64,000 bases of DNA from Verrucomicrobiota bacterium (GTDB taxonomy: Bacteria > Verrucomicrobiota > Verrucomicrobiia > Limisphaerales > Palsa-1400). Shown piece after piece: positions 24,896-60,506 of the stretch. The notes below the pieces were generated by a model. The model was not told the origin of the DNA and ran no database searches. It saw only the letters and a list, made by a program, of their open reading frames with translations. Location of the stretch: the NCBI GenBank assembly GCA_049510745.1, contig JBEKYR010000001.1, positions 255,920-319,919 of the forward strand, written 5' to 3'. The number at the start of each line of letters is the position of its first letter. Position 1 is the first letter of the stretch. A program made the translations under genes and the position numbers.

Positions 24896-24931
24896 TTGCC
24901 CTCGCGCCTTCATTCCCCCAACATCATGCCC
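24896..24931 (+). promoter_or_regulatory. Putative leaderless comM promoter
   Basis: TTGCCC-17-CAACAT-7-ATG; conserved with 17-nt spacing in fragments 2 and 5. Confidence 0.55.
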
Positions 24932-26474: not shown

Positions 26475-26731
26475 TCAGGCTGGGTTGACCGTGAAACTCT
26501 CCTGAGTCGGATCAAATCCAAGCAAAGCCACAACCCGCTCAAAGTGACTGGGATGTGGCTGGCACCGATTTGTCTCCCAGCCCCAAAGGGTTTTGACGCT
26601 CACCCCCAGTTCTTCGGCGCATTCCTTCCGGTTTTTCCTCAATTCCAGTCGCCGTTTCCTGATTCGTTGCCCCAGGGTGAGGGGAACTGCCGGTGCTAAA
26701 ATGGCAATGAATGGGGGTTCGTTGCCTTTGG
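26475..26731 (-). pseudogene. C-terminal half of a double-HTH (XRE) protein, paralogue of 57123-57662
   Basis: PKGNEPPFIAIL...RRLELRKNRKECAEELGVSVKTLWGWET aligns with 57215-57375. Confidence 0.85.
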
Positions 26732-27013
26732 ATGAAGACTAGGGAGTGTTGCCAGCGCGGCCAGAAGCGGAACAGGCTAACCCAAAGCAGTCGGTCAGCG
26801 GAGTGGAGTTTGGGTTTGAACGTCTGCCGTTTGAGCACGGCGAGTTGATGTGGGAGCGCCAGATTTTGAAGCACGAGCCGGGATTGGGATTGGAGTCCGG
26901 AGAGCAGGGAGCGGAGAAGCGCGAAGAAAATATCAAGCATGACGAGGCCGACTTTGGCCGATCTTATTGAAGAACCAACGTTTTCGAAGGATTATGGAGT
27001 TTTCGCTACCCAC
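26732..27013 (-). mobile_element. Truncated IS (integrase-core/IS481-like): left end plus transposase N-terminus
   Basis: Terminus TGTGGGTAGCGAAAACTCC at 27013; ...VLQNLALPHQLAVLKRQ..PKLHSADRLLWV..W; truncated at 26732. Confidence 0.7.
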
Positions 27014-37197: not shown

Positions 37198-37717
37198 ATG
37201 TTAGCACGGGTCTTGTCTGCCGCTGTCAGCGGCATGAATCCATCACCGGACGGAAAAATGCCCGGGGGAGTCTCGCAACTCGCCGCGGGAAATCCAGAAT
37301 TATTTGGGCCGCATTTCCGGCCCATTGCTGGATCGAATTGACCTTCATATGGAAGTGCCGCAAGTGAAGTTCCGCGAGATCAGCAGCGAACGAACCGGTG
37401 AGAATTCCGCCACCATCCGCAAGCGGGTGGTCGCAGCCCGGATACGTCAACACACTCGATTTGCCAGCAAGCGCGACGTTACCTGCAATGCCCGGATGGG
37501 GCCGCGTGAATTAAAAAGGTATTGTGCGCTGGATGAGGCGACCAAAGAACTGCTCAAGTTTGCCATGGCCGATCTCAATTTGAGCGCCCGAGCCTACGAC
37601 CGCATTTTAAAAGTCGCCCGCACCATCGCCGACCCGGCCGGCGCCGATAACATCACGGGCGACCACATCTCCGAAGCCATCCAGTATCGTTCGCTTGACA
37701 GGCAGTTGTGGACGTGA
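37198..37717 (+). pseudogene. comM: comM copy with internal deletion (codons ~13-348) and +1 frameshift
   Basis: MLARVLSAAVSG joined to MNPSPDGKMPG at 37233/37234, then ...IQYRSLDRQLWT*. Confidence 0.95.
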
Positions 37718-40518: not shown

Positions 40519-40519
40519 T

Positions 40520-40600
40520 GGTCGGGTGACCATCTCCCGCGCCGCCGGCACGATGACTTTTCCGTCGGAGTTTATGCTGGTCGCCGCGAGGAACCCGACG
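40520..40600 (+). pseudogene. comM: comM internal fragment, codons 326-352; attL-like junction
   Basis: GRVTISRAAGTMTFPSEFMLVAARNPT matches 25907-25987 and stops at ACG. Confidence 0.93.
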
Positions 40601-40819
40601 GCGTAAGCACTTCGACGGCATGATCTTGGAATGACATGCTGATTTGGTGAGGCACCACACTCACACATTAACCCAAAGTCTGCTCTGATTTGATCTCAAC
40701 AGATAATCACTGCTGGCATGGTTAACTGGCATCCATTCCTTTGCATGCAATGCCAACGTCGAACGCGTGGAGCCAGCGCGCAAAAGGTGCATGGATGTCT
40801 TGCGTCTGAAGCTCGTCAG

Positions 40820-42460
40820 CTAAAGCAGGTCGAGGCCTTTTAACTTGATGCTGATTTTTTCGCGGCGGAGGTCCTCAGGAAAACGGATTTGCAGCGTAAA
40901 GGGGCCGGAGACGGCGCCTCCGTCGGCATTGAACAACGGGGCGTTGATCGTAATGGAACGGGTTGACTCGGCTCCTTTGGCGGTGAATTTGCGCTCATTG
41001 GCGTTGCCCATCATCTGCTGCGCCGCGCCTGGGATTTTTACCTGGACATCCAAACGGCGCACGGCCGGCGGCCCTTTGAGTTGCCCGTCAATTCGCAGCA
41101 TGTTGTTCTTATTCACGAGCTTCTTGACAATAAATTTCGCCCCTGGGAGAACGGCCCCAAGATCGAATTCGTTGGTGGATGTTTCGGAAACATTGGTCAG
41201 CGTCATTTCCTTCCACGCGCCGGCGGTGAGAGCGACGGCTTCGGCGTTGAGTTCGTCGATGGCCTGCGCGTCCGGTTGCGGGAGGTGGAGTCGCAATTGG
41301 ATTTGCACAGAATTTTTTTCTTGCGCGCCTCCTTGAAAGGCGCTGAATGAAAAGCCGGTCTCCTCGCCTTCAGTTTCCGCGGCTTCGACGGCGCGGCCCT
41401 TGTCATCCATCGCCTTGAGGATGCGCACGCCGCTCAATGATTGAAGCGTGCGGCCTTGGGGTGGAAAAACTTTGACGGTGACCATTGCGCCCGGCGAGGC
41501 TCCAAATGAATTGCCGTCTTTGAAGTAATCCTTGCCTTCGGGAAAAACATGGATCGTCGTCGTCATAATGCCCTCCGCTTGGGCCACAAAGCCCGCGCCG
41601 CCCTCGGTGAGAGGAATGTCGTCGGCCGATTCACCCTGCCGAGCGAAGGCACGCCGGAGTTTTTTGGATTCCAACGGCGCCTTGATGATCAGACCGCCGA
41701 GTTCGGCGGTGATAACAGTCGGGGTGTCCATCAGCTTCATGTAAGCGTCGAGAGATTCGTCTTTCTTGGAATCGACCGTGAGCCAAGTAGCGTTGTTCTG
41801 CATTCCCGTGAATCCGCTGGAAAGGACCTTGCCGGGAAGCACGAGCCTGAAATCGCTGTTCATCCCGCTCAATTTCCAAGCTGAACGCATGGATTTGAAA
41901 TAGCGTCTCATGCCGGTTTGGGGAGTAAAAGTCACGCGCAGGTGGCCGTTGGTGTCCTGCTCAAAGCGGACGTTGCCAAACATCTCCCCTCCGATCGAGC
42001 TGCGGGGACTCTTCAACATCTCCTCAACGGATGAAAAGGAGGATTTTGTCACGACAGTGACGTTGTCCTTGTTCACCTCGACCTGCTCCTGTTTGTCTGT
42101 ATCGGTGGCAAGTTCGCCAAATTGCTCCTCCCTCATTTCAAGGACTTTCTTTTTTAATTCCTCGTCGCTTAACGAGTTGGTGGCCGCGTTGGTTTGAGAC
42201 GCAGCCTTTTGAATCTCTTCCACATCGCCCGATTCCTCCATAGCCTTCATCTGTTCCATTATGCGCAGTTGCTGTTCCATGGTCTTGCGCGGCTGCGTGG
42301 ACTTGGCTTCGATTTGACAACTGCCATCAGCCTGAATCGTGATGACGGTTTGTTGCTGGCCGGCTTCTTCGTCGAAAAACTGGGCCATTAAGCGGGAATT
42401 CAAGTCCGCCGCGCCGCACGCGACGGCGAGGGTCAATGTCCATCGGAGAAATCGCTTCAT
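40820..42460 (-). CDS. Secreted hypothetical protein
   Basis: Signal peptide; architecture resembles 42485-44065. Confidence 0.8.
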   Translation of the reverse strand: MKRFLRWTLTLAVACGAADLNSRLMAQFFDEEAGQQQTVITIQADGSCQIEAKSTQPRKTMEQQLRIMEQMKAMEESGDVEEIQKAASQTNAATNSLSDEELKKKVLEMREEQFGELATDTDKQEQVEVNKDNVTVVTKSSFSSVEEMLKSPRSSIGGEMFGNVRFEQDTNGHLRVTFTPQTGMRRYFKSMRSAWKLSGMNSDFRLVLPGKVLSSGFTGMQNNATWLTVDSKKDESLDAYMKLMDTPTVITAELGGLIIKAPLESKKLRRAFARQGESADDIPLTEGGAGFVAQAEGIMTTTIHVFPEGKDYFKDGNSFGASPGAMVTVKVFPPQGRTLQSLSGVRILKAMDDKGRAVEAAETEGEETGFSFSAFQGGAQEKNSVQIQLRLHLPQPDAQAIDELNAEAVALTAGAWKEMTLTNVSETSTNEFDLGAVLPGAKFIVKKLVNKNNMLRIDGQLKGPPAVRRLDVQVKIPGAAQQMMGNANERKFTAKGAESTRSITINAPLFNADGGAVSGPFTLQIRFPEDLRREKISIKLKGLDLL

Positions 42461-42484
42461 GTTGGGTTTCCTTTATCTCAATGC

Positions 42485-44065
42485 TTATTGTGTCAACGGA
42501 ATATGTTCCACCAGCACCGGCACGTCCACCGAGGAACCGGAACCGCTGGCGACCACCGCCAGGGATAACGGCGCCCCAGGCGAGCCGGGCACCATCAACT
42601 GGCAGCCGTTGCCTTCGCCCATGCCCATGTTTTGTTGTCCGAGAAAAGTCGGCCAGGGTTTGCCTTGGGCGTCAAAGACCTGAGCATCGACCAGCACGCC
42701 TTTTTTGCCGCTGATTTGAAGCATCAGCATCGTCATGCCGCTTTGCGACATGGCCATTTGGAGGGAGAGCGGCATGCCCATTTCCGCCAGCTTCGCGCTG
42801 TTGATCTTCTTCTCTGAACTATCGAATCTTCCCATGCCTTTGGCAGGGTCCACAATCCAATTGGCCGGAATGGCGTTGGTCATTTTCACCACTTCGGCGC
42901 CGCCGAAATAATGGAGAGCGATCGAACCTTTGATTTTCCCGATTTCCTTGATCTTCCAGTCTGGTGGGCGAAAGGAAAATGAAACGGTGTGTCGCAAATC
43001 GGCGGCGGTGTTGGTATGTTCGGCATCGTCCTCTTCGCTCTCGTTCATGTACATTCTACTGTAAAAAAATGAGTCTCTTTGATTGGCTTCGGTCGGCTTG
43101 AGGTCGTTTCCTTTGGCATCCACCGCCTCGTCAAGGGTCGCCTCGCCCCATTTCTGCGGTTCGAATTCCCGCGGCAAAACGACCGCGCCCACCAGGTTGG
43201 CCGAGTTTTGATTCATTCCGCCCTGGCCGCTCAAGTCCACCGAGCGCGTGATGACCACGCCGTAGGGGATGAACTTGGCGGCGGCAGTGACCTTCGCGGG
43301 GTCAGGTCCTGCGCCCTTGGCGGCGCTTGTGCCGGCGGACAGTTCCGGGAACGGGCACAGTCCAAGGCGGGCCGGCGTGACTGGCGAGATTTTCAGGCCG
43401 CTCGCATCGCAACGGGCCTCGTTCACCGCGCTTAACTGTTGCACGAACTCATCGGCGTCCTTGCACTTGGCGCGCTCGGAAATCCAGAGGGCGCTTTTTC
43501 CGTCGCGGACGCCGTTGCCGGCGGTCACGGTGTTGGGCAGTGTCATGCGAAACTCCACGCGCATCTCATTCTTCTTCTTCTGCATGTCGGCCAAACCGGG
43601 CATGGCCATCATGCCCATATCCTTATCGGGCTTGATTTCGGCGATGCGGGCGATCCCTTCCATGCCGCTGACGGCTTTCACTGCCAAACCGTCTTTACCT
43701 ATTTCGACGGTGAGTTGGTGTGCGCGCCCGTAAGGGCTGGCGAGGAGCGAATTGATGTCTTTGTATTCGACATCAATCACTGTGACCGTGTCGCCTTTGT
43801 CCGTTTTGTCCTGTTTGACGGTGATTTTGAAATCCTTTCCCGGGAAGAACTTTTGCGCCTCGGCTTCAGATACAGGCGGATACGCGATGCCGCCACCCAT
43901 CTCGCCCGACATCGCGGCGAGCGACCCGGCGTCGGCGCCGACGCGCGTTTCGATGCGCACCTTGCCGGAGCCGTCGGGGTTGATGGTCAATTCGTCCTTG
44001 GTCTGAATGCAGCCGGTCAGGCAGATCAGAAGCACCCCTGTTGTCAATGATTTCCACATAATCAA
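42485..44065 (-). CDS. Hypothetical lipoprotein
   Basis: Lipobox LTGC followed by ELTINPDGSGKV. Confidence 0.8.
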   Translation of the reverse strand: MIMWKSLTTGVLLICLTGCIQTKDELTINPDGSGKVRIETRVGADAGSLAAMSGEMGGGIAYPPVSEAEAQKFFPGKDFKITVKQDKTDKGDTVTVIDVEYKDINSLLASPYGRAHQLTVEIGKDGLAVKAVSGMEGIARIAEIKPDKDMGMMAMPGLADMQKKKNEMRVEFRMTLPNTVTAGNGVRDGKSALWISERAKCKDADEFVQQLSAVNEARCDASGLKISPVTPARLGLCPFPELSAGTSAAKGAGPDPAKVTAAAKFIPYGVVITRSVDLSGQGGMNQNSANLVGAVVLPREFEPQKWGEATLDEAVDAKGNDLKPTEANQRDSFFYSRMYMNESEEDDAEHTNTAADLRHTVSFSFRPPDWKIKEIGKIKGSIALHYFGGAEVVKMTNAIPANWIVDPAKGMGRFDSSEKKINSAKLAEMGMPLSLQMAMSQSGMTMLMLQISGKKGVLVDAQVFDAQGKPWPTFLGQQNMGMGEGNGCQLMVPGSPGAPLSLAVVASGSGSSVDVPVLVEHIPLTQ

Positions 44066-44074
44066 ATCCTTGCG

Positions 44075-47000
44075 TTATTGGCTACTTGCATTGCGCATTT
44101 TCTTGTTGATGTCAAGGCGTAGTTGCCGGGCCTCCGCGCCCCGAAGCCCCTGCAAAGCCTGCAAAAGCTTGCGCAACTCCGATTCGTCCTTCCGAGCAGT
44201 CATGATTTTCCGAAGCGCCGGCAGATATTTGGCGTCCTGGCTCAAAGCGATGCCTGCCATGATCGCGTCGTCGATTTCGTTCTCCTCTTTTGAGTTTGCC
44301 TCCCCGGCGTCCGCAACCAGGCGATCCAAGCCGTCGAACTGCCCGTATTGCGCCAGGAGCAGCGCAAAGGGGATCCTTTCGGTAGGTTTGGCGGCGGCAA
44401 GCCACTTTCTCGCCGGTTCGAGAAAGGCGGGCTTGCCTTCCAACACCGTCAATGGCCGGCTATCGGCCTGGTTAAACGATGTTTCCAAGCTGCCGCCATG
44501 GTGGCTTTCAAATTCAAATCCACCGGAGGACTTCTCCAAATCGGCCGCTTGGCGGACTTGCGGATCAAGCAAGGCCAGTGCAGCCGCAGTGGCGACCCCC
44601 AGGTTGGTTTCGGAAAGCAGCGGGCCAATCTTTGTTTCGAGCGCCGGCCGCTCTTTCGCCCGCCGTGCCAGCGATTGCACGGCCACTCGACGCACCCATT
44701 CATTGGGGTCGGTGATGGCCTTGTCAAAGATCGCCACGTCTTGTTCCGAATCGGAGCGCAGCCCCAGAGCATAGACTGCCGCCGCGCGCCAGGCCGCGTT
44801 CGTGGATTCCACCAACGCGAGCGAGACCGCCCGGGCGCGGGCATCGGCTGTCCACAAATTCCACCCGCGCGGAACTCGCTGAGGAATGCCGTCAATGATC
44901 TCGAATCCACCCTCAAAATCTCCGCCCGAGACGTAGCCCGCCAAGAAGTCGAGCGATCTGTTCAAAACATCGCCGAAGGCCATTTCGACCGCGGATTTGA
45001 ATCGATCCGGCTCCAACAAGTAATCCGCGGCCGCTGGCGCGGCCCGTCCGCTTTGCCGCGCAGCCATGGAGAAAAGCACCGGCGAGGCGCACAATTTGTC
45101 AAGGACAGGCCGGCCCTCAGGCCACGGAAGTTTTTCGAGAACGAGCCGGAGGGCGAGCGTATCCTGCTGATGCCGGGCCGTTTGAAGTTCGGGCTTTTCC
45201 AAGGCGGCGAGCAATTGGGGCAAGTCCGCTTTGCCGTCGCCAGTGGCGAAAACAGCGGCCGCTACCCGCAGCCGCGGTTTTGGTTCGAGGCGTTGGAGCA
45301 GGCCAGCGTGCCACGAGGCCATTTGGCTGGCGCTGGCCACAGGTTTATTTGTTTTCAGCGTCGGGGATTGCATCCCCGTGGAGACGGGAACTGGCGGATC
45401 GAGAATCTTCAGGACGATATCTGCGGCAGAAGCGCGAGTTTCGCCGTCTTCGTCGGAGAGCAAGGGCGCGACCAGTTCGGCGGCCAGTTTGACCGGCTGC
45501 TGACGCAACGCTTCGGCTGCGCTGCGGCGCAAGCGCGCCTCAGGAGCGGCCAGGGCTTTGACGAGGAGCGGTTTCCAATTGGCATCGCTCTGCTTCTCAG
45601 GATTGATCCCGTGCTTGGCCAGCGCGCTGAGAACGGCCTCTTTCTCGGCCACAGTGCCGGCATTGAAAATCTCGGTAACCGTGTCGGAGGTTTCTTTCGT
45701 TTCTGAAGCGAGCATCATTTGGACGGTGGCGGCCCGAAGGCTGGGCAGGCGCTTGCCCAGCGCGGCCAGTTGCTTGTCGTCCGGCGAATCGTTGAGCTTT
45801 TCCAGCGTGGCCAGCGCGTTTTGCACCACAAAACCATCGGGGTCGCCAAGCAGCTTCGTGACGTCATCGGCGAGTTCATTGGCGCCCAATTTGCCCGCGG
45901 CTTCGGTCGCCGCGGCGCGCACACGCCAGCGCGGGTCGGCCAGGCACCGCTTGAGGCCGGTGGAAACATCATCTGGAACAGAGGAAGCGCGCGCCGAAAA
46001 GCGGCCGTCGCCGGAAAGTCCTTCCTCCAACGCGGCGATGGCCGTGCAAGCGACCACTTCATTGGGATCATCCAGGACAGTGAGCAACTGTTTGAGGGCA
46101 TCGGGGCTTTTGGAGTGGCCCAGGGCCTGAGCCGCAGTCATGCGCAGGTTGCTGTCGGAGGACTGCAACAATGCGGCCATGGCCGGAACAGCATCATGGC
46201 CTCCAATGCTTGACAGCGCATGGACAGCGCTCTCCGCCACGAGTGAATCGGCATCATGGGCCAACTCGCTCAAAGCAGGCAGCGCCTCCGCGCCCGCGCG
46301 GCCTAAATGTTCCGCTGCCGCCTGCCGTTCGAGGCTCTTTCCGCGCGCCAGGGTCTTGCGCACGCCGCCGGTCCGCTGCTCCAGCAAATCGGAAACAAGG
46401 ATTGCCCAACGGACGTCTTCGAGCAGGCCGAGGGCGCGCTGGTCGCCGCTTTTTTCTGCCCGCCGGAGGGCCTCATGCACCACCGGCAACGCGGCCGTTC
46501 CAGCGCCGACCAGTGCCGACATGGCTTCGGTGCGCCGGACAGGATCATCGCCGCGCAATGTTTCCAATTCGGCCTTGATCGAATTCTCAGCCGAAGGATC
46601 CAATCGGGGCCGAGGGATCGCAGTGGGAAGCCGGCCTGTCTCCCTCCACCATTTCCGTAACGCCGCGACGGAATTGGTCAACTCATCCGGCCCCTGCCAC
46701 GGATCAATCGCCATCCCATCCGGCGCCAGGCGTTGCAGCAAATCGGCGGCGGCGACGCGGACGCCCAAATAAGGATGCTGGATCGCGTCGATCAGGACAG
46801 GCACGACGGCTTCCCGCTGGCCCATAAGAATGTTGGCGGCAGCGGCGCGATCCGCGGGGTTGGCCTCGCCCATCATTTCTACCAACTGGCGCAGGTCATT
46901 GGTGGTCAGATCGTCGGCTGAGGCCTTCCTGGCATAGTCGGCATATTTGTCCGCCGGGGCCGTTCCTTCCCACTCGCCGGCTTTGGCCCGGCGGCGGCCT

Positions 47001-47404
47001 TCGGCCAGGAACGCAAGCACTTCGGGAACAGAAACAAATCCGGTGTGGCGCCCGACAATTTTCCCGTCGCCGGTCAACAGCGCCAGCGCGGGAATGGCCT
47101 CCACCGCGAAGCTGGCGGCGAGTTTTTGATTCGAATCGACGTCCACGTCCACCAAGTGCAGGAGGCCGGCTTGCTGAAGGAATTCCGGCGCGGAAAGCGT
47201 ATTGGCTTTGAGTTTCTTGCAGGGGCCGCACCATTCCGCGCTGAAAATCAGCAGGACGAGCGTTTGGTCCGCCGCCGCAGCCTCGGAGGCCGCTCGCAAC
47301 GTGGAATGGGTCACGGGCTGGCTGGCAGGTTCGGCCCCAGCCAGCGCGAAGGCCGCGAGCAGCATGACTGTGCCGGCCTTGAACATGGAACCTTTTGGCG
47401 TCAT
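44075..47404 (-). CDS. Thioredoxin plus HEAT-repeat protein
   Basis: FSAEWCGPCK; multiple D..VR..AA.AL repeats. Confidence 0.87.
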   Translation of the reverse strand: MTPKGSMFKAGTVMLLAAFALAGAEPASQPVTHSTLRAASEAAAADQTLVLLIFSAEWCGPCKKLKANTLSAPEFLQQAGLLHLVDVDVDSNQKLAASFAVEAIPALALLTGDGKIVGRHTGFVSVPEVLAFLAEGRRRAKAGEWEGTAPADKYADYARKASADDLTTNDLRQLVEMMGEANPADRAAAANILMGQREAVVPVLIDAIQHPYLGVRVAAADLLQRLAPDGMAIDPWQGPDELTNSVAALRKWWRETGRLPTAIPRPRLDPSAENSIKAELETLRGDDPVRRTEAMSALVGAGTAALPVVHEALRRAEKSGDQRALGLLEDVRWAILVSDLLEQRTGGVRKTLARGKSLERQAAAEHLGRAGAEALPALSELAHDADSLVAESAVHALSSIGGHDAVPAMAALLQSSDSNLRMTAAQALGHSKSPDALKQLLTVLDDPNEVVACTAIAALEEGLSGDGRFSARASSVPDDVSTGLKRCLADPRWRVRAAATEAAGKLGANELADDVTKLLGDPDGFVVQNALATLEKLNDSPDDKQLAALGKRLPSLRAATVQMMLASETKETSDTVTEIFNAGTVAEKEAVLSALAKHGINPEKQSDANWKPLLVKALAAPEARLRRSAAEALRQQPVKLAAELVAPLLSDEDGETRASAADIVLKILDPPVPVSTGMQSPTLKTNKPVASASQMASWHAGLLQRLEPKPRLRVAAAVFATGDGKADLPQLLAALEKPELQTARHQQDTLALRLVLEKLPWPEGRPVLDKLCASPVLFSMAARQSGRAAPAAADYLLEPDRFKSAVEMAFGDVLNRSLDFLAGYVSGGDFEGGFEIIDGIPQRVPRGWNLWTADARARAVSLALVESTNAAWRAAAVYALGLRSDSEQDVAIFDKAITDPNEWVRRVAVQSLARRAKERPALETKIGPLLSETNLGVATAAALALLDPQVRQAADLEKSSGGFEFESHHGGSLETSFNQADSRPLTVLEGKPAFLEPARKWLAAAKPTERIPFALLLAQYGQFDGLDRLVADAGEANSKEENEIDDAIMAGIALSQDAKYLPALRKIMTARKDESELRKLLQALQGLRGAEARQLRLDINKKMRNASSQ

Positions 47405-47414
47405 CGGCGGTGGA

Positions 47415-48062
47415 TCATTGGAGAAGCGCGTAAGCCAGGATATTGACGTTCACCTTCTGGCTGTTTTTGATTTCGTTGCCGCCGCAACAACAGCAGCCGT
47501 GCATGGTGGCGGTGTCGTTGAGGCCGTCCTGCGAATAGATCAGCACGATTTTCCCAGCAATGGTCAGGCCCAGCAGCTTGGCGTCTCCGCCATGGCTCAT
47601 GTCAAGGCGATCAACGATGAAAACAGTGTGGAAAATCGGGTGGTCCATCGGGACGTCGGCCAATTTGCGGTCCGGGAAAATGGTTTCAATCTCATGCGTG
47701 AACGAATCGCCCCATTCCTTGCTGCTGCATCCGGCGCTGGCCAGCAGGAACCCGCCTTTTTCCAGGTAGAGCTTCAGGTTTTTGCGTTCATCGTCTGTCA
47801 AAGTGAAGGCCCCCTCGCCCGTCATCACGGCGAAAGGAAAGTGGAAGACCTCGCTCTCGCCCAGCTTCACTGGCTTGAACTTGCGGGACGTGTTGATGCT
47901 CGTTTCACCGGCGACGGTGGAGAGGAATTCCTCGCTGAAACAGACCGAACTTTTGGTGCCGGCGTAAATCAGGTTCGCGCATTCGATCTCTTCGCCGGCG
48001 GGGACGCGGAGGCCGGGCCACAGCAGCAGAACTGTCAATAGCATGAATTTTTTCATGGTCAC
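47415..48062 (-). CDS. DUF4159-like protein
   Basis: FPFAVMTGEG, YLEKGGFL, DHPIF, VNILAYAL. Confidence 0.82.
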   Translation of the reverse strand: MTMKKFMLLTVLLLWPGLRVPAGEEIECANLIYAGTKSSVCFSEEFLSTVAGETSINTSRKFKPVKLGESEVFHFPFAVMTGEGAFTLTDDERKNLKLYLEKGGFLLASAGCSSKEWGDSFTHEIETIFPDRKLADVPMDHPIFHTVFIVDRLDMSHGGDAKLLGLTIAGKIVLIYSQDGLNDTATMHGCCCCGGNEIKNSQKVNVNILAYALLQ

Positions 48063-50767
48063 TTTCCTTCCTTCTCAGATTCCGCGATCACGCGGAAGTA
48101 TTCGCCCACAAGATCGCGGTAACGGAGTGGAAATTTGGCTTCAGGTTGAAGGCGAACGCGGCCTGGCGCTTCCGGTGGCGGCAAGCCTGCATCGCTAGCG
48201 TCCCCATCCATGGCAGTGCTGGTTCGGCTGTTGCTCGATCCCGTTTCCCCCTGTCCGCCCGCCTGTTCGCCGGCCAATTGGGCGTTCGGGCCATAAAGGG
48301 CGAGAGATTCGTTGAAAAGGCCGTAGCCGTCACGCCCGTTCTCCCCGTTGCCGGCTCCCAACGCGGAAAGAATCTGCTCGAGCGAATTGCCTAAACCCGG
48401 CTTGCACAATTTGGGTTGAAAGCGCGCGGTCAAACTTTGCCTGCCCGAACCACTCGCGTTACATTCGCCAATCAACTCCCTCATCTTTTCGGCGGCAAGC
48501 TTGGCCAGCGCATGGCCGTTGACCAGGTCAGGGATGTCCAGCGCCTCGGTCGCGCCGGCGAGGTATTTTTCGATTTTTGCGGCCGCGACGTCGGAAAGAA
48601 ATTTATTCACATCTCTGCGCAGCGGATAGTAGTCAGGCTCATTGGGCACTTCGGCCAGCAACTGCGGCAATTGTTCCAGCAAGTCGTGCAGGCCCTCCTG
48701 CACACGCTGCTGCTGGTGCGCCAGTTCCTGCACTTCCATTTGTTCCATGCGCGTCAGGGAATCGGAGGCGTTGTCAAATCGCTCCAACATTTGCGCCAGC
48801 GCGGCTTCTTGCTGGGCCAGCTTGACGAATGCGTCCGCCGCCGCGACCAATCGCGCGACGGCGGCGATTTGCTCGGCGGGCTGGCCGACTTGCTCGCGTT
48901 CGGCTTCGGCCATCGCGTTCAATTGGTCGCTGAGCTTCTTCATCGCTTCCGGGTTGGGCACGCCGCTGCCTAGCGCCTTGGCAAGCTCCGATTTCGCTTC
49001 GGCCAGTTGGGTCAGTTCCGCGGCCAGCGCGGCGTGAAAAGACTCATCCACGTCGAACATCGGCGGTTCCTTCAGCAGCTTCTTGAGCGCCTGTTCATAT
49101 TCGTCAAGCTGTTTGGCCAGCGCGTGGGCCGCGTCGGTGGCGGACGGGTCGGACTGGGCTGCTTTGGAGGCGGCATCACGCGCTCGTTCCGCCAGGCGCC
49201 GGGTCCAGGCGTCGAGTTTGAAGTAGGATTCAAAGAGAGCTTTGCGCGCGGCGGCCTGGCGCAAAATCGCATTGTATTGTTCCTCCGAAATAATTTGCAG
49301 GCGGAACGGACGGCTGAAGACCACGTTCGGACCTTTGGGATAATTGTCGGCTGCCTCAAAATAATAATCGATCACATCGCCGGGCCGCACGCCGAGCCGC
49401 GCAAGGTCGAAGGCAGCGGCGGATTCGACCGATTTGGGACCTCCTTTGAGCGCCAGGCTCATTTTGAAAGGACGCTCGATGGAACGATTCAGCCCGCGCA
49501 GCCACACCACGCGCGTCACGCCGTAATCATCGGTCGCCTGCACGCGCACGGGAACACGGGTGGACGGCGTCGCCACGGCATCCTTGCCCGGCTCCACGAC
49601 AAATAAATGCGGCGGGCGATCGGGCAGAATATTCAAGCGCCCGCGCTTTGGTTCGGCGCAACTGAGGCCGCTGACGTCACGAATCGAAAGATTAAACGCC
49701 ACCGCCTCCGTCAGGTTGAAACCGCCGGCCACAACCGTCGGTTCTTTGTCCGGTTGAAGGTTGACCTCGACCTGTTTTCCACCGAGGACAGGAGTCAGCT
49801 CCAGGACGCCGGATTTCAGGGGCCGATTGCTCGTGACACGGAAATTGACGCGCGTGTCTTCGGGCAGCGCCTGGGCCTCCTCGGCCAGTTTGCCGGTATG
49901 GGCAGGTTTGCCGGTGTAGTCGGGAAAAATCATGGTGGCTTCGACCTGCGTTATCTGAGGAGTGAACTGAATTTGCACTGGGAAGCGCCGGCTGCGCGCC
50001 TGGCCGTCGGTCACATAATACTGGGCCGGTTCGCGGAGACTGGCCAGAGTTTGGAAGAAGGATTTATCCGGCGCAAGAAACATGATGGCGCGCGTTTCGC
50101 CGGCGCTGGTCTTTGTCACGAGCCAAAGTTTGTCCGCCGGACGGCCGCTGGCCGTGGCGTGAATTTCGACTTGGCCTCCGAAGAGCACGGAGGCCGCTCC
50201 AGGAGTCACCGTGATTTTCAAGCGGCTGAAAGGCGGATGATCGCCGCGCGCGTCGAGGAAACGGGGCAGGACGGCTTGAAGCAAATCATTTTCCGCCAGG
50301 AACAAAGCCGCCCAAGCCAGCGCGACGCACGCCAGCAGCAACCCGGCACGCCGGACGCCACCACCCTCCATTGATCCGACCGACACTTTTGCGGCTGATT
50401 GCCGGCCCAATTCAACGGCTTCGCGACGCAGGAATTCCTGCACGGCGCTTGCGCCGGTCTTGTGCGCAAGATCGACCGCGTTGGTCAAACGGTTGCCGAG
50501 GGAAGGGTCGGTGCATTCCAGAAGCCAGGCCAGGAATGGATCTGAGAACCGGCGCCAGAAAAAAATGACAGCGCCCAGCACAGCCAGGGCGGTCACAAGC
50601 AGGAGCCAGGGCGCGGCCACGCGGCATGGTGCCGGCAAATCGAGCGCCGCGTCCGTGATGACCGCCCCAAGCGAGAGCAACGCCAGCGCCGCCAGCAGGA
50701 CAAGCCCCGTGCGCAAAGCCAGCCATCTGGCCAGCCGCGAACGGATATGGCCAAGCACGCTTGTCAC
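48059..50767 (-). CDS. Membrane protein with Ig-like and coiled-coil regions (DUF4175-like)
   Basis: GTG start overlaps the upstream TGA; ATDDYGV; YRDLVGEYFR. Confidence 0.78.
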   Translation of the reverse strand: MTSVLGHIRSRLARWLALRTGLVLLAALALLSLGAVITDAALDLPAPCRVAAPWLLLVTALAVLGAVIFFWRRFSDPFLAWLLECTDPSLGNRLTNAVDLAHKTGASAVQEFLRREAVELGRQSAAKVSVGSMEGGGVRRAGLLLACVALAWAALFLAENDLLQAVLPRFLDARGDHPPFSRLKITVTPGAASVLFGGQVEIHATASGRPADKLWLVTKTSAGETRAIMFLAPDKSFFQTLASLREPAQYYVTDGQARSRRFPVQIQFTPQITQVEATMIFPDYTGKPAHTGKLAEEAQALPEDTRVNFRVTSNRPLKSGVLELTPVLGGKQVEVNLQPDKEPTVVAGGFNLTEAVAFNLSIRDVSGLSCAEPKRGRLNILPDRPPHLFVVEPGKDAVATPSTRVPVRVQATDDYGVTRVVWLRGLNRSIERPFKMSLALKGGPKSVESAAAFDLARLGVRPGDVIDYYFEAADNYPKGPNVVFSRPFRLQIISEEQYNAILRQAAARKALFESYFKLDAWTRRLAERARDAASKAAQSDPSATDAAHALAKQLDEYEQALKKLLKEPPMFDVDESFHAALAAELTQLAEAKSELAKALGSGVPNPEAMKKLSDQLNAMAEAEREQVGQPAEQIAAVARLVAAADAFVKLAQQEAALAQMLERFDNASDSLTRMEQMEVQELAHQQQRVQEGLHDLLEQLPQLLAEVPNEPDYYPLRRDVNKFLSDVAAAKIEKYLAGATEALDIPDLVNGHALAKLAAEKMRELIGECNASGSGRQSLTARFQPKLCKPGLGNSLEQILSALGAGNGENGRDGYGLFNESLALYGPNAQLAGEQAGGQGETGSSNSRTSTAMDGDASDAGLPPPEAPGRVRLQPEAKFPLRYRDLVGEYFRVIAESEKEGK

Positions 50768-52935
50768 AGCAACCCTTCCTGCCGGCGCCACCACCACTCG
50801 GTGCCGAGCAAAACCAACAGGGCTGTGAGCGTCCACCATCGGTCCCACAGAGGCCGCTGGCGATGCAACAATTCACGCCGCGCTTCCCAATGTTTGACAA
50901 CATCGGCCATCCGCGGAACGTCCGAACCTCCGAGGACCGCCCCGCCGGAGACTTCCGCCAGCTTGCGCATCGTTTCAGGGTCGGCGCTCAACTCGCGGTT
51001 TTCGACCGAGGCGCTTACCACTTCGATGCTCTGCGTCAGTTCCGGAGGGTTTCCGACGTTGTTTGTCAGCGACACACGGTAGGTTCCAGGGGGAAATGGA
51101 CCGGCTTGGGCGACGAACGATTCGCCACGCGGGCGGGGTTCGACCTCGGTGGATTTGCCGCCGCCGGAAATGATCAAGCGCGGTTGGTAAACAGCGCGAT
51201 CCAGGTGGCGCGTAGAAATGAGGAATTGCATGGGCTGTTCGCTCGTATAGTAACGGCGCGCGCTGGAAAGAGCCACGTCGGAGCCTGGCAGGAACTGGCT
51301 GCCGCCCAAAAGCCATTGCAGGAGGGAGACCCAAAAGCGCTCATAAGCGGCCTCGCTCTCCTCCTGGCCCGTTTCGCGGAAGGCCCACCGCCAAAGACCG
51401 CCGGCATTGAGGCTCAGGGTCTTGCCCTGGCCGTAACGCTGGTAGGCCAGCAGCACGGGACCATCCTGCTCCGCCGAGCCGGCCAAAACAATGGCCAGCG
51501 GTTTTTCACCGAGCGTGATGGCGGCTTGGTCCAGCGCCGGAAGGCGGTCGAGCAATTCTTCCACGGTGCCCGCCGCGCCCAAGTCAAATATAGGATTATC
51601 CCGTCCCGCCTCGGTCGGGCGGAGCTTGACGGAGGAGGAAACACCGCTGCCCCAGGCGACCGGCTCGAACTTGGCCAGCGCGGGGAAACGCCCGCCATAG
51701 GACTTGCCGCGGGCGAACACCAGGCTGCCTCCTTTTTTGGAGACGAAATCCGTCAACAGGCCCTCGGTGTTATTGTCGAAAAACGCGTCGGCGTCGCGGC
51801 CCAGGACGATGACATCAAAACTGTCCATGTCGTCGGCTGTGCGCGGAAAAAGGTCCGATTCCAGGCGCGCTTCCCCGCCGGGGGCGGAAAGGACGGCGAC
51901 ATAGCGCTGGGCGTTGAGGCGATACACAGCGGTCAGATCGACTTTTGGGTTGCGCTTGAGGCATTGCACCAGAAACTTGGTGTCCCAGGAGGGCTGGCCT
52001 TCGGCCACCAGCACGCGCACCTTCTTGCCGACGGAGCGGAGGAAAATCGCGCGTTCATTATTGGCGGTGTCCGATTCCTCCGGCTGCGGTGGCACTCGAA
52101 AAACGTAGCGTTGTTCGCCCTGTTCCGGCGCAATGACACGCCTGGAGAAACGGGCCGCGCCGTTGGTATCGGGCGTGACTTCTTTGGAATCGATGACTTT
52201 GTCGTCCTTGAGGAGATCCACTTTGAAACTGCGGTTGGGATAGCCAGCCTGGTGCAACGTCGCTGTCAATTCGACTTCCGCGCCGCTAAAGGCGAGCGCT
52301 TCGGCGGAGGCGGTCTCGATCCACAAATCGTGGCGCGAAACCGGCCCGCCAAGTGTCCAGGTCCAGAGCGGAACGGAACGGGCCAAAGCCAGTTCCGCCG
52401 CGTCCAAGGCGCCGGGAGAAGTGGCCTGGCCGTCGGACGCCAGCAGAACACCCGCCTGCGCCTGGGCATCGCCCAATTCAGACACCACACTCATGAGAGC
52501 GCGGCCGAGATCAGTCGCGTCACCGCGCGCCTCCGTGTCCGACAGCCGGGACAACTCGGCCGGTTGCGCTTCCCGGTCGAACCGGCGGACATCCAGCTCG
52601 AAATCCTTGCTCAACGCGGCCAGGGTGGAAGCATTGGTGACGACCCGCAAGGCGGCGCCAAGGCGTGAATCGCCGGCGGCGGCGTCATGGGTGGCCATGC
52701 TGGCGGAAGTGTCAAACAGAATGACGAGTTTGGGCTTGCCTGTCTTTTCGCGCGGGAGCAACGCCTGGGGATTGAGCATGATCCAGAGCAATCCGCCGAG
52801 GATCAGCGCCCGCAACGCCACCGTGCTGCCGCCTTGTTTCTCGCGCCGCCATCGGAACGCCGCCAAAGCGAACAGGCATAACGCGATGACCGCAATCCAG
52901 CGCCCGTTCCATGGAGGCAGGCAAAGCCAGTTCAT
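50764..52935 (-). CDS. vWA plus glutamine-amidotransferase-like membrane protein
   Basis: DTSASM MIDAS, LASDG, YGQGK, EWWWRR. Confidence 0.85.
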   Translation of the reverse strand: MNWLCLPPWNGRWIAVIALCLFALAAFRWRREKQGGSTVALRALILGGLLWIMLNPQALLPREKTGKPKLVILFDTSASMATHDAAAGDSRLGAALRVVTNASTLAALSKDFELDVRRFDREAQPAELSRLSDTEARGDATDLGRALMSVVSELGDAQAQAGVLLASDGQATSPGALDAAELALARSVPLWTWTLGGPVSRHDLWIETASAEALAFSGAEVELTATLHQAGYPNRSFKVDLLKDDKVIDSKEVTPDTNGAARFSRRVIAPEQGEQRYVFRVPPQPEESDTANNERAIFLRSVGKKVRVLVAEGQPSWDTKFLVQCLKRNPKVDLTAVYRLNAQRYVAVLSAPGGEARLESDLFPRTADDMDSFDVIVLGRDADAFFDNNTEGLLTDFVSKKGGSLVFARGKSYGGRFPALAKFEPVAWGSGVSSSVKLRPTEAGRDNPIFDLGAAGTVEELLDRLPALDQAAITLGEKPLAIVLAGSAEQDGPVLLAYQRYGQGKTLSLNAGGLWRWAFRETGQEESEAAYERFWVSLLQWLLGGSQFLPGSDVALSSARRYYTSEQPMQFLISTRHLDRAVYQPRLIISGGGKSTEVEPRPRGESFVAQAGPFPPGTYRVSLTNNVGNPPELTQSIEVVSASVENRELSADPETMRKLAEVSGGAVLGGSDVPRMADVVKHWEARRELLHRQRPLWDRWWTLTALLVLLGTEWWWRRQEGLL

Positions 52936-55025
52936 CGCACGGCCTCCAGATTTCTTTCCCGCGCGGCCATTTTACCCGGAAGGCTCCCGCGCGAAGTTCG
53001 AAGCGGCCGACGCCAAAACGCCAGCAAGAGCATCTCCAAACCCAGCAACGCCGCCGCCGCGCCGGCCAGCAGAGGCCAGAGTTGGCGCGTTTTGCCGGCG
53101 AGCAATAAATCCTCCTCGTCCTGCGCGACCGTGACGGTGGAGCGGCCGCCCGCCTTGAGGCTTTCCAAGGCAATCGGCCGGGTGTCGCTCTCGCGCGGGT
53201 CAACGTTGACGATGCCGTAAGAAACAATCGTTTCGCCTTGTTTGATCGGATAAGCGCCTGGTAGTTGCGCACTGGGCAACGCCAGACGCGTCGTGCGGCC
53301 GCTGGCCATGACCTGGGCCGCAAAAGGATGGCCTTGCGGATCGGTTACGGTCACAGCGGTTTCGCCTGCGGACGCGACATTGAGCACCCAGGCCGAACCG
53401 GGAGTGACAGCCTGTTCATCCGAGGCGCGTCGGAGTTTGCGCAGCAATTCATGAATCATGGCCGGGAACATCGGACTGCCAATGAAATCACTGCCGTCCG
53501 GCGTAAATGGAAGATTGGCGAAGACGGCGGATCCCTGTCCCATGGCGCCAAGCGTCAACGCGGGAGAGCCGTCGGGATAGGAAAGCAGCACTTCGTCGCG
53601 ACGGCTCTCCACCAGTTCAACCTGATAATGCCGGCGAAAACGCAACGCGCCGAGGTCCTCAGCCTCGGTGTCGGCAAAGAGTTTCGCGTGGCCGGCCGCC
53701 ACAGCATCGCCCGTCTCTGAATTAACCGTGTGCCGTAGATGAAACGGCGGATCAAGCGCGGGCGAGGCCAGATCCGGCGCGGTCGGCCCGTCCAGAAACA
53801 CCATCAGATGCGCGCCTTCCTTGACTCGACGGGCCATAATGTCGAGGGCTTCCTGGCTTGGAAGAGCGGGGGCCACCAGCACAAACACGTCCGATGTTTC
53901 CAAAACGCCGCGATCCGCGTCCTGAGTGCGTCGCCGGATCAGCGTGAGACCCGGCGCGGCTTCGGGCGATGGAACCAAGGCGCGGCTGATGTAAAAAGCG
54001 GCGCTTTGCGGGTCGGATTCATCGGCGTCGCTGACCAAAAGAATGCGCAGGGCCTGGCTGACGTGAACCAGCAGCCAACGGGTGTTGTCCTCGATCAGAT
54101 CGTCCGGTTCGAGCGAAAGCTTGGCGGCGAAGGAGCCTGGATGCGGGACGGAGATGTTGAAAGCGGCCTCGGTGGTGCCAAAGGCCGGGACCTTCACGCG
54201 GGTTTCGCGGGTGAATTCCCCCAATTCGAGCCGGACGGTTTCTTCGCGGGGGCGCGGCGTGCAATTGAGAATGGCGCCTGTGATTTCAAGCGGTTCGCCC
54301 ATGACCGGTTCGGATGGCGAGAGATGGGCGGCGGTGATGGCCACGTTGTCAACCGCTTGTTGCGTCACGGGACGGAGGCGGCAAACCACACCGCCCGGCA
54401 ATTCGGGGACGCCCTGCCAGTTGGACTTTTGGAAATCGCTGAAAACGTAAATCGTGCCCGCGCCGCCAAGCATTTTGGCGGCCAAAGCCAGCGCGGCGCC
54501 GGGATCGCCGTTTTCATAAGTCGCCTGTGTTTTGACCAATTCTTCGTGCAGCGCGGGGATGTTGCGCGAAAGGGCCGGCAGAAGCGGACGCGGCGTGGCG
54601 CCTTCGAGAATAACAGCGGCCTCGGAACCGGAATCCAGCCCGCGCAAAATGTCAGCCGCTTCGGCCTGAGCGCGGGCGAAAAGAGGCACACCTTGCTGAA
54701 CCGCGCGCATTGACAGGGAAGCGTCAATGATAAGCACGACGCGTTTGGCGGCCTCGGCACCGAGCGCCGCCCCCGCGGGCTTGAGAAAGGGACGGGAAAA
54801 CAGGAGCACCAATGCCAGAACGGCCAGACAGCGAATAGCCAGCAACAGGATGGTGCGCAGGCGATGAACAGACTGCTGGCCAGCGCAGGCCTCCAGCAGG
54901 AACTGAAAGGGCGGGAAGGCAATGCGGCGAGGCCGGGCGCGCGTCAGGAAGTGGATCAGCACCGGCAACCCAACCGCCGCCAGCCCGGCCAGCATCCAGG
55001 GATTTGCAAAAGCAGGCCAGTTCAT
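52932..55025 (-). CDS. BatA-domain/vWA protein
   Basis: FANPWML...PVLIHFL, IIDASLSM, FSDFQ. Confidence 0.88.
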   Translation of the reverse strand: MNWPAFANPWMLAGLAAVGLPVLIHFLTRARPRRIAFPPFQFLLEACAGQQSVHRLRTILLLAIRCLAVLALVLLFSRPFLKPAGAALGAEAAKRVVLIIDASLSMRAVQQGVPLFARAQAEAADILRGLDSGSEAAVILEGATPRPLLPALSRNIPALHEELVKTQATYENGDPGAALALAAKMLGGAGTIYVFSDFQKSNWQGVPELPGGVVCRLRPVTQQAVDNVAITAAHLSPSEPVMGEPLEITGAILNCTPRPREETVRLELGEFTRETRVKVPAFGTTEAAFNISVPHPGSFAAKLSLEPDDLIEDNTRWLLVHVSQALRILLVSDADESDPQSAAFYISRALVPSPEAAPGLTLIRRRTQDADRGVLETSDVFVLVAPALPSQEALDIMARRVKEGAHLMVFLDGPTAPDLASPALDPPFHLRHTVNSETGDAVAAGHAKLFADTEAEDLGALRFRRHYQVELVESRRDEVLLSYPDGSPALTLGAMGQGSAVFANLPFTPDGSDFIGSPMFPAMIHELLRKLRRASDEQAVTPGSAWVLNVASAGETAVTVTDPQGHPFAAQVMASGRTTRLALPSAQLPGAYPIKQGETIVSYGIVNVDPRESDTRPIALESLKAGGRSTVTVAQDEEDLLLAGKTRQLWPLLAGAAAALLGLEMLLLAFWRRPLRTSRGSLPGKMAARERNLEAVR

Positions 55026-55927
55026 CGTGTATTCTCGCGGGCCAAAAAGCAGTTCCGCAGAAAGCGGCAGGGATTATCGGACGTTCTCGCCAGATACCAA
55101 TCACTGCCGCGCGCCTGACAGTTGGACTTCATTTCGGTCAGAAAGCGGTCGAAACGACGTCGATAAAGCGACCGGACGACGTCAGGTTCGGCATTGAACC
55201 AGCCCGATCCCTCCGTCTCGAGAAACCGCGCCGAAACCACCTCCGGCAATTCCAGTTCCTCCGGATGCACAATTTGAAACAGCATCACGTCAAAGCGGGA
55301 GCGCCGGAAAAGATCGACGGCTTTCCAGAAGGCAGCGTCGGCGTCCAGGAAATCGCTAAAAACCGCCAGCACACCACGGCGTTTGATGCGGGCAAACACC
55401 TGCTGGAGGCAGGCCCCCAAATCCGTTCGGCCCTGGGCACGGGCGCGCTCCAGGTTGTCCAATACGCGATTCATCTGCGCCCAGGAAGCGGCGGCCGGCA
55501 GATGGCTGTGCAATTGGTCGTCAGCCAGAGAAAGCCCCACTTCATCCCCCTCGCGCAGGACGAGGTAGCCCATGGCGGCGGCCAGGCGTGCGGCGTGTTC
55601 AAGTTTGGAATGAGTGGTAATGGTGGCTCCGGAGAATTCCATCGAACCGCTTTTGTCCACGACCAGATAAGTGAGCAAATTGCGCTCGGCGTCATAGAGG
55701 CGCACATAGTGGCGATCGGTGCGGGCGAAGACTTTCCAGTCCACCAGCCGGATGTCATCACCCGGAGAATACTCGCGGTAATCAGCAAATTCAACCGCCG
55801 TTCCTCGGAAGTGGGATTTGTGGGGGCCGGCGAAAGTGCCCTCGGCCGCCCCCCGGGGTGTCAAACGAACCTGGCCCAGCGCTTCCATCGCCGCGATGTC
55901 CAGGAAGCGATGTCGCAAAGTCGGCAC
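55022..55927 (-). CDS. DUF58 protein
   Basis: EFADYREYSPGDDIRLVDWK, DKSGSM, SDF. Confidence 0.93.
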   Translation of the reverse strand: MPTLRHRFLDIAAMEALGQVRLTPRGAAEGTFAGPHKSHFRGTAVEFADYREYSPGDDIRLVDWKVFARTDRHYVRLYDAERNLLTYLVVDKSGSMEFSGATITTHSKLEHAARLAAAMGYLVLREGDEVGLSLADDQLHSHLPAAASWAQMNRVLDNLERARAQGRTDLGACLQQVFARIKRRGVLAVFSDFLDADAAFWKAVDLFRRSRFDVMLFQIVHPEELELPEVVSARFLETEGSGWFNAEPDVVRSLYRRRFDRFLTEMKSNCQARGSDWYLARTSDNPCRFLRNCFLARENTR

Positions 55928-55932
55928 AAGCT

Positions 55933-56949
55933 TCAGCGCGCGGCGGCGGGTTCGCGGACGGTTTCGAGCAAATGTCTGACAATCGCGTCGGACTCGATGC
56001 CTTCTCCCAGCGCGTTGTAGTTGGGGATAATCCGGTGGCGCAGGACGGGGCCGGCCATGCGCTGCAGGTCGCTGTTCTCCGGTGAGGGACGCCCATCAAG
56101 AAGCGCGCTGGCCTTGGCGGCGGTGACCAGGTGTTGCGTCGCGCGCGGCCCCGCCCCCCAGGCCACGTAGCGCCGCACGTAATCATCCGCCTCACCGGTC
56201 TTGGGCCGGCTCGCGGTGGTGAGCGCGACGGCGTGTTCGAGCACTGGGCGCGAAACGGGCATTTGGTCCACAATCTCAATGAACTTGCGAAAGTCCTCCT
56301 TTTTTGCCAGCGGCGCCAGGCCGCTGGATTGCGCCCGAATCGAACGACCGGCAATTTCCACTTCGTCGGCGCGCGCGGGATAATCAACGTGGATGCTGAA
56401 CATGAAGCGATCCAATTGCGCTTCCGGGAGCGGATAAGTGCCCTCCTGCTCAATCGGGTTTTGCGTCGCCACGACGATGAACGGCGGTTCCAAGCGGTAA
56501 GTCTTGCCGTTGACGGTGACGGCCAATTCCTGCATCGCCTCCAGCAGCGCGGCTTGGGTTTTGGGCGGCGTCCGGTTGATTTCGTCTGCCAGAATCAGAT
56601 TGGCGAAAACCGGCCCGCGATGGAACACAAGATCGCGGCGGCGTCCCGATTCGTCGCTCTGCAAGATCTCGGTGCCGGTGATATCGGCGGGCATGAGGTC
56701 CGGGGTGAATTGTATGCGGCGGAAATCCCATCCGAGCAAATCGGCCAGCGCCTTAACCATCATGGTCTTGGCCAATCCGGGGACGCCAATGACCAGCATG
56801 TGGCCGCCGGAGAGAAGGCCAGTCAGAAGCAGGCGGACGACTTCCTGTTGGCCGATGAGCACACCGGCCATTTGTTTTTGGAGGGCTTGGCAACATTCAC
56901 GCAGGCGGGCCACGTCCGCTCCAGCGTCTTTGATTTCGTTCGGGTTCAT
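55933..56949 (-). CDS. moxR: MoxR family AAA+ ATPase
   Basis: GVPGLAKT, RIQFTPDLMPADI, DEINRTPPKTQ, TQNPIEQEGTYPLPEAQLDRF. Confidence 0.95.
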   Translation of the reverse strand: MNPNEIKDAGADVARLRECCQALQKQMAGVLIGQQEVVRLLLTGLLSGGHMLVIGVPGLAKTMMVKALADLLGWDFRRIQFTPDLMPADITGTEILQSDESGRRRDLVFHRGPVFANLILADEINRTPPKTQAALLEAMQELAVTVNGKTYRLEPPFIVVATQNPIEQEGTYPLPEAQLDRFMFSIHVDYPARADEVEIAGRSIRAQSSGLAPLAKKEDFRKFIEIVDQMPVSRPVLEHAVALTTASRPKTGEADDYVRRYVAWGAGPRATQHLVTAAKASALLDGRPSPENSDLQRMAGPVLRHRIIPNYNALGEGIESDAIVRHLLETVREPAAAR

Positions 56950-57122
56950 ACCTCGTCTTGGGATACAGTTCTAACAAACCTTGTAGTCCCTTTGTCGGCC
57001 ACTGTCAATGATAGTCCGCGCGTGCGAATAGGGAAATTCAGATTCCCAGAACTATGCAGGCAATGCCGACATGATCGTTCCATCGCTCAATCAACGGGCG
57101 CCTCAGCAGGACCAGAAGGCCG

Positions 57123-57662
57123 TTAAAAGTCGCCCATCCGCTTGACGTTTGCCGGGCCAACTTCGAGGAACTTTTCAATTCCCTTCCGAAAAAGGGCAGT
57201 GGGCTGACGCTGACCGGTCTCCCAGCCCCAAAGGGTTTTGACGCTGACCCCCAGTTCTCTGGCGCATTCCTTCCGGTTTTTCCTCAATTCAATGCGTCGT
57301 TTTGTGATTCCTTGCCCAAGCGTCAACGGGCCTATCCGTGCTAAAATGGCAACGAATGGGGTTTCGTTGCCTTTGGGGCCTCCGAGCGTCGGATTGGTGA
57401 ACGGATCGCACCCTAAAAACTTCACCAAACGGGGTTGATTGGCCCACGTCGGATAGACCTTGTCCCTCTCCCACAAGCTTAGGGTCAGTTGGCTAACTCT
57501 CAGCCGCCGAGCAGCTTCCGACTGGCGGATTCCTAAACTGAAACGTTGCTTTCTCAGGTGTTCTCCGATAGTCTTGGGCTGCTTTGAAACAGGAAAACTG
57601 CGAGTCCAGACGGGGGAAATGTCCTGCCTTTCCACGTTCACAGTCCTTTCACAAAAAGGCAA
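57123..57662 (-). CDS. Double XRE-HTH protein abutting the attR-like junction
   Basis: Two HTH motifs (QSEAARRLRVSQLTLSLWE; ECARELGVSVKTLWGWE); nearest start inside the island is TTG 57662. Confidence 0.75.
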   Translation of the reverse strand: MPFCERTVNVERQDISPVWTRSFPVSKQPKTIGEHLRKQRFSLGIRQSEAARRLRVSQLTLSLWERDKVYPTWANQPRLVKFLGCDPFTNPTLGGPKGNETPFVAILARIGPLTLGQGITKRRIELRKNRKECARELGVSVKTLWGWETGQRQPTALFRKGIEKFLEVGPANVKRMGDF

Positions 57663-57670
57663 CGTCGCGC

Positions 57671-57745
57671 ACGCCGGACGGCAAAATTCCTGGCGAATCG
57701 CGCAGTTCGCCGCGCGAAATCCAGTACCGCCAGTTGTGGACGTGA
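57671..57745 (+). pseudogene. comM: comM 3' remnant from codon 352; attR-like junction; two internal deletions
   Basis: TPDGKIPGESRSSPREIQ|YR|QLWT* matches 25985-26038 and the comM C-terminus. Confidence 0.9.
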
Positions 57746-57778
57746 TGGGCGACGACGTGATATGGTGTCGAAAATTAG

Positions 57779-58858: not shown

Positions 58859-58913
58859 ACCCGGGCTGCTCCAATGGCTCCAACTTCCTGAACCGGCATT
58901 GCAGCGAACCCGC

Positions 58914-60503: not shown

Positions 60504-60506
60504 ACC

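Follow-up and report, generated by a model that had tools for sequence, protein, structure and literature searches.

A double helix-turn-helix frame beside a split comM gene, probably the severed tail of a comM-targeting large serine integrase

Background

The double XRE-type helix-turn-helix (HTH) frame P0001, which adjoins the 3' half of a split comM gene in a stretch of 64,000 nucleotides of Verrucomicrobiota DNA (the window), is most probably the severed C-terminal tail of a large serine integrase (LSR), lying at the orphaned attR of a comM-targeting element whose attP would have been inside its own LSR gene. Comparison of sequences shows that, in the unintegrated state, a single open reading frame (ORF) encodes integrase, linker and double XRE HTH. 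Integration cuts this ORF at the core: the recombinase of ~490 residues, extended by a few residues from the host, remains at attL, whereas the HTH module is left behind at attR, where annotators name a separate regulator. The original prediction had placed attP at the 5' end of the HTH gene and let the recombination state decide which sequence lies upstream of it. That part was upheld, whereas its mechanism, a 13-codon leader gained on excision, was not, since intact relatives gain a whole integrase of ~490 residues in frame.

Results and discussion

The right junction and the HTH family

P0001 occupies 57123..57671 on the minus strand; it matches Pfam HTH_3/HTH_31, and a structural model has two four-helix domains of the HTH_3 type, which makes it a member of the XRE/Cro-C1 group. 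Its 5' end includes the element arm (P arm) of attR (57644..57670), which also encodes the conserved LPFC codons, and beyond this arm lies the crossover core ACG (57671..57673), with AC as the probable dinucleotide, as judged from the bases common to attL and attR cores. The core is the Thr codon of the comM motif AMNP-T-PDG (T364), as in the relatives' intact comM genes, and sequence comparison places a decayed comM 3' half on the plus strand (57671..57745), in which EIQ jumps to the last codons and stop. The HTH frame has a TTG 9 nt from this core and in-frame GTGs at residues 9 and 11.

A total of 222 relatives of P0001 were found, and HTH loci were gathered from GTDB genomes and metagenomes. 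Leaving aside the own copies L010 and L038, 110 loci include the N-terminus of the HTH; 6 of them were unplaceable and 3 were duplicates, which left 101 non-redundant loci; 68 of these adjoin the comM 3' half at the window's codon offset, the class being defined by the comM frame at that offset. An independent tblastn search found comM 3' halves at the 68 loci, and at the other 33 it found no abutting comM at a different offset. The codon preceding the TTG is ATG in 47 of the 68 comM-type loci, ACG in 12 (as in the window) and TCG in 7. With this ATG only 6 nt in from the core, the HTH could also, or even chiefly, be produced by itself, and independent translation at attR is possible from the frequency of the codon there; gene callers put the start at the codon before the TTG in 66 of 121 cases.

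With synonymous sites near saturation, which makes the values rough, dN/dS across 85 sequences was about 0.16-0.20 in both HTH domains, 0.18 in the N-terminal linker and 0.52 between the domains. By this measure the HTH is under purifying selection well past the att arm. Intact copies made up 27/28 of those without the ATG and 59/65 of those with it, among loci chosen by similarity, which favours intact copies.

On one contig (L215, L217; G224:C13) three tandem cassettes of HTH plus comM 3' half form an integron-like accretion at comM, with no LSR match in the 46 kb fetched. In L047, L058, L065, L072, L075, L085, L096 and L115 the core adjoins a recurring partner sequence that is not comM and may be a conserved secondary target; in L072 and L075 it sits where a second HTH-like gene ends. 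The relative P0124 (254 aa) has an extra internal repeat in its HTH region.

True left ends in related genomes

In four genomes (G317, G038, G047 and G022) the comM 5' half ends at the same core and meets an outward-reading LSR of about 500 aa. The LSR family was found in 63 of 401 genomes of the order and not in the window's genome; the protein that the relatives carry at one end combines Resolvase, Recombinase and zinc ribbon/coiled-coil regions, and no cognate LSR was found in the window itself. Thirty LSR loci were fetched, eight of them at comM T364. At all eight left ends the LSR frame crosses the core and ends 8 codons into antisense comM; codon position 1 falls on the final base of the core, the same register as in the HTH frame. 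The core domains of the integrated-form LSR are kept together (PF00239, PF07508 and a weak zinc-ribbon match).

The arms on the LSR side and on the HTH side form an inverted repeat; the former has 17-18/27 identities to the window's right arm and, in most of the true attL ends, an unbroken identical run of about 15 nt; the corresponding inner arm at the window's left junction (40600) has 5/27. From these counts the LPFC motif is also an att arm, and 40600 is not the attL of this element. The layout expected of an attP, with inverted arms flanking a core of 2-3 bp and a collinear split of the host gene, was found from arms compared separately and from the repeat in phage Harrison described below, and an ORF crosses the att site with a C-terminus that differs between states.

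Both ends occur on a single contig in G317 (59 kb apart, at about 1514806 and 1574050 of C1) and G038 (43 kb apart, at about 56879 and 100130 of C1). In a scan of 73 of 99 called ORFs, coupling-protein and primase genes in both elements and a relaxase in G317 suggest that these elements are mobilisable. The island in G038 also holds, beside LexA, an ORF of 1406 aa in which an ImuB/IMS domain is fused to a DnaE-type polymerase (L211:12473-16690). A partly conserved promoter-like stretch, judged by eye, lies just upstream of the LSR genes.

The family also includes LSRs that end inside different targets, namely the 3' ends of tRNA genes, a yjbQ-like gene, a short palindromic repeat and two additional comM sites. 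At the yjbQ-like site of the G053 pair, whose target gene we take to be yjbQ, the frames of the two ends agree too. At L165 (G053:C17) the stop codon of the LSR at the junction is created by integration itself. The related LSRs of L168, L169, L170, L173, L174, L176, L177, L179, L180 and L147 end in GGGTGAGGG-type sequence followed by unrelated flanks, which suggests, on the sequence, that they target a dispersed intergenic repeat. In G120, G358, G074 and G044, open frames that extend far beyond the end of the LSR were considered as fusions and excluded, having no HTH match and looking like read-through into flanking DNA.

Natural single-ORF fusions of LSR and HTH

The predicted unintegrated form has natural counterparts. 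In P0122 one ORF runs from an LSR (68% identical to that of G317) through RQRNLCATLPFC into a double HTH that is 59% identical to P0001; it is N-terminally incomplete and the sole natural fusion found of the window's own subfamily. P0125, P0126, P0128 and P0158 are full fusions of 644-656 aa, and P0175, which is 90% identical to P0125, is its integrated twin, which has a short tail of another sequence and stops 8 residues beyond the same point. L191 carries a tRNA-type LSR fused to one HTH, and the viral contig L204 encodes an LSR with two HTH. Serine integrase structures match the model that AlphaFold gives for P0125, in which two HTH domains lie beyond a low-confidence stretch (residues 457-516).

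Among the 150 best representatives, 66 had at least 470 aa, and 14 of these 66 bear an HTH tail. Fused and unfused forms are intermixed in a tree built from 33 hand-picked rows, but one supported clade is all fused, so some tails may be permanent. Viral contigs included two loci with P0125 and none with P0122, and no plasmid record covered 80% of a fusion. A phylum-wide sample gave matches in 7 of 401 genomes, the window's own included, none of which spans both LSR and HTH parts.

Phages Harrison and Paisley

The cultured phages Harrison and Paisley encode a recombinase of 695 aa with C-terminal HTH domains. In host (Paenibacillus) genomes the same protein cluster holds recombinases of 560 aa, the commonest of them on 232 contigs, which are identical to the 695-aa form to residue 542 and then differ for 18 residues; separate HTH proteins of 111-156 aa in host genomes match the Harrison/Paisley tail. 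Codon 541 of the recombinase gene in Harrison is the centre of an imperfect inverted repeat of 19 bp. With the split read from protein sequences, Harrison and Paisley are the clearest case of a virion-encoded fusion against a split in host genomes. The relevant passages of the phage paper call gp44 a possible integrase and do not contain the word attP (PMC5056774).

The left junction of the window

Direct reading of the letters gives ACG at 40598-40600 as well as at 57671-57673, and the comM pieces flanking the two junctions are collinear with intact comM (nt 1012-1095 on the left, nt 1090-1143 on the right). On the left, a comM piece of about 80 bp on the plus strand (40520..40600), a host arm only by sequence comparison, is joined exactly at the core to foreign sequence. 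This inner sequence (40601..40670) is not an integrase arm and is weakly like the recurring non-comM partner arm; it is the best match in the genome to a profile of eight such arms, but with E=1 genome-wide and 0.012 in the window. It contains, on the minus strand, ATG(40637), which shares the frame of the HTH and is separated from the left core by 13 codons and one base, none of them a stop. A profile of LSR 3' ends had no match at 40600, and protein and DNA profiles revealed no LSR remnant at this junction; in the window's comM region a search with the att-arm motif (2 mismatches) matched the right end only, so that an attL and an attR were not found together. Promoter scans of both ends found no sigma-70-like site.

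Excision of 40601-57670 had been proposed to supply this ATG with a 13-residue leader and so switch on the regulator. The bases and frame given for the ACG junction, ATG(40637) and the TTG were confirmed by direct reading, and the open frame, the collinearity of the comM pieces at ACG and the lack of the family's ATG in this copy all fit such a switch. However, the accompanying caution that chance in-frame joining is plausible proved well placed: an in-frame ATG precedes any stop within 13 codons or fewer at 13% of 20,000 random genome positions, and within 30 codons or fewer at 23%. Because of the former rate, and with a left junction that lacks the element's att arm, ATG(40637) is probably due to chance. 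Moreover, no cognate integrase was found in the genome, and four peat contig sets covering 39500-58800 list no joint of 40600 to 57671, although contigs drop rare variants and cannot show absence. The designation of 40600 as attL fails on the arm identities and the LSR profile, and the two checks proposed with it went the other way: the leader peptide is not conserved, being seen in no true left end, where the C-terminus of the LSR is encoded instead, and a start on the attR side is present in most relatives (47/68). The remark that the gene reads inward with only a TTG was accurate as to the TTG 9 nt from the core; it overlooked the ATG before the TTG in those relatives and the two GTGs of P0001. 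We consider the leader switch highly improbable and reject it on the chance rate, the poor left arm and the LSR C-terminus at true left ends.

A cognate LSR or left arm was sought throughout the window's genome (94% complete, 85 contigs) and none was found, and for this reason the window is regarded as an orphan attR; at that completeness and contig number a cognate LSR may have been missed by the assembly. Two PF07508 genes do occur in the genome but were rejected as candidates, being on other contigs and not of the comM-type subfamily. The end bearing the LSR would have been deleted, probably when the recombinase paired this core with a secondary site, and this deletion would have left the host-arm scar at 40600, where the ATG would be incidental. 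From the sequence we infer, tentatively, that 40600 may be such a recombinase-made scar, as would result from a deletion between a true attL and a secondary site. The window's own copy is a dead remnant, of value because it points to the family.

Between the junctions lies a cargo operon on the minus strand (40820..56949) for MoxR AAA, DUF58, VWA/BatA, DUF4159 and thioredoxin-HEAT proteins, with no recombinase according to domain search; relatives carry this operon too, and the flanks fetched there had no HTH, LSR or comM match. The region around the window's comM is a comM accretion site. The intact, Mg-chelatase-like comM identified by domain search, the target gene, lies at 24896..26458 on the plus strand, and sequence comparison located a second HTH remnant of the same kind, 5'-truncated, beside its stop (26502..26738, minus strand) and, elsewhere in the region, a comM copy with a large internal deletion that joins the first 12 codons to about codon 361 (37198..37717, plus strand). 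Several short decayed comM 5' starts are present upstream of intact comM (19756-24334). Just outside attR (57779-61937) are genes for an HlyD adaptor, an MFS-like transporter and an outer-membrane-factor-like protein, presumably an EmrAB-TolC-like set. Elsewhere in the genome, two further decayed HTH/att-arm remnants (G000:C50:9892-9966 and G000:C6:117114-117341) each lie near a tRNA-like 3' fragment, and the second is similar to the junction in L191, where the fusion is of the tRNA type.

Stand-alone regulator or passenger sequence

Alternatively, the HTH might act in its own right as a regulator or directionality factor, translated from an ATG or GTG of its own at attR, with the fusion on the circle a tolerated by-product of operon-like coupling. 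The ATG of the 47 comM-type loci and the preference of gene callers for that codon agree with this, as do the length and low confidence of the linker predicted for P0125 and the separate HTH proteins annotated in Paenibacillus genomes. Against it, the frame is kept in all eight comM left ends and at the second target, natural unintegrated forms have no stop, copies without the ATG are intact and under selection, and no promoter-like site was found near the right end; we therefore regard a stand-alone role as unlikely. Far less credible still is conservation of the junction solely as a DNA site with the HTH as a decaying passenger. The LPFC codons are indeed an att arm and truncated remnants are common in the window's genome, but purifying selection extends well beyond the arm and fused tails occur in a cultured phage and across distant LSRs. 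A severed integrase tail is the reading that we retain.

Relation to known systems

In mycobacteriophage BPs, attP lies inside a regulatory ORF and integration, by a tyrosine recombinase, changes the protein by removing a C-terminal tag from the repressor. The arrangement described here differs from a switch of the BPs type, which has attP in a stand-alone repressor gene: the HTH is the integrase's own tail, and in unintegrated forms the frame upstream is the integrase. The attP inside a repressor gene, cited as precedent in the original prediction, is accordingly a more distant parallel than the splitting of integrase genes of the Mx8 and SSV1 type.

Att sites inside serine-integrase genes have been published for streptococcal rumA ICEs (PMC4701971) and Dehalococcoides DsiB (PMC3146451), and inside tyrosine-integrase genes for Mx8 (PMC6070905, PMC4383910) and archaeal SSV-type elements (PMC8371274). 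In the rumA ICEs (Ambroset et al. 2016, PMC4701971), as here, the gene of the serine integrase contains att, the enzyme changes in length and C-terminus between the integrated and the excised state, and the authors expect a functional difference; unlike here, the 3' parts are exchanged with the host gene and no folded double HTH is stranded at the other end, and target and hosts are others. In the Dehalococcoides ssrA islands (McMurdie et al. 2011, PMC3146451) the serine integrase DsiB always overlaps attL with no stop inside the island, and the authors suggest, in a similar way, that it may be fully functional on the circle only; this system differs in its tmRNA target and its second small recombinase DsiA, and the relevant passages name no HTH tail.

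Among tyrosine recombinases, IntP of Mx8 has attP inside int, and integration swaps a C-terminus of 112 residues for 13 residues and lowers or alters activity (PMC6070905, PMC4701971); the lost part is not described there as a separate HTH module. The archaeal 'suicidal' integrases of SSV1, pTN3 and pT26-2 (PMC8371274) share with the present case a gene split by its own integration and a gene state that acts as directionality control, but they belong to the tyrosine family and are split into inactive halves. Here the catalytic part is not separated from the N-terminal part: the enzyme is of the serine family, its core domains stay intact and the tail alone is cut.

LSRs that target comM/Mg-chelatase genes make up 12.4% of the predicted site-specific integrases of Durrant et al. 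(2022, PMC10083194), the same target class as here; the words HTH, helix-turn-helix and C-terminal are absent from the main text of that paper. The literature searched, with subscription papers and supplements outside its scope, yielded no report of a folded HTH tail severed from a serine integrase, and a prior description is possible. An att site inside a serine-integrase gene is thus known, and the severed, folded HTH tail appears to be undescribed in that literature.

Possible roles of the tail

The tail is inferred to make the two states biochemically different. By analogy with Mx8, the tailed enzyme encoded on the circle could well be the integration-proficient one, the tail-less form being less active or needing another factor, and we put this forward tentatively, at somewhat under even chances. 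Since integration is a requirement for a temperate virion, attP x attB should be possible with the tailed form, which favours a tailed, integration-proficient enzyme. The same consideration, together with the inhibition of integration by RDFs (10.1101/2024.08.21.608926), argues against the tail as a fused excision factor. The other roles are predictions of lower standing: repression of the integrase promoter by the tethered HTH after excision is rather doubtful, action of the freed HTH in trans as a directionality factor is unlikely, and a tail without any role is slightly less likely again.

Conclusions

Extended to a wide group of serine integrases, with hosts from Verrucomicrobia-like peat bacteria to Firmicutes phage, directionality control might consist in a domain switched by recombination, in place of a separate RDF: the integrase-HTH form, encoded on the free circle or in the virion, would favour integration, and the tail-less enzyme, with or without the freed HTH, would excise. 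We hold this generalisation to be improbable as a whole, if a real possibility. The layout bears on the open question of what sets the direction of serine integrases that have no known RDF, since one enzyme exists here naturally in a tailed and a tail-less version. For genome engineering, an LSR taken from an integrated element would be truncated and would end in residues derived from the host. Many of the 'XRE regulators' annotated at the edges of islands may be integrase tails that have been severed.
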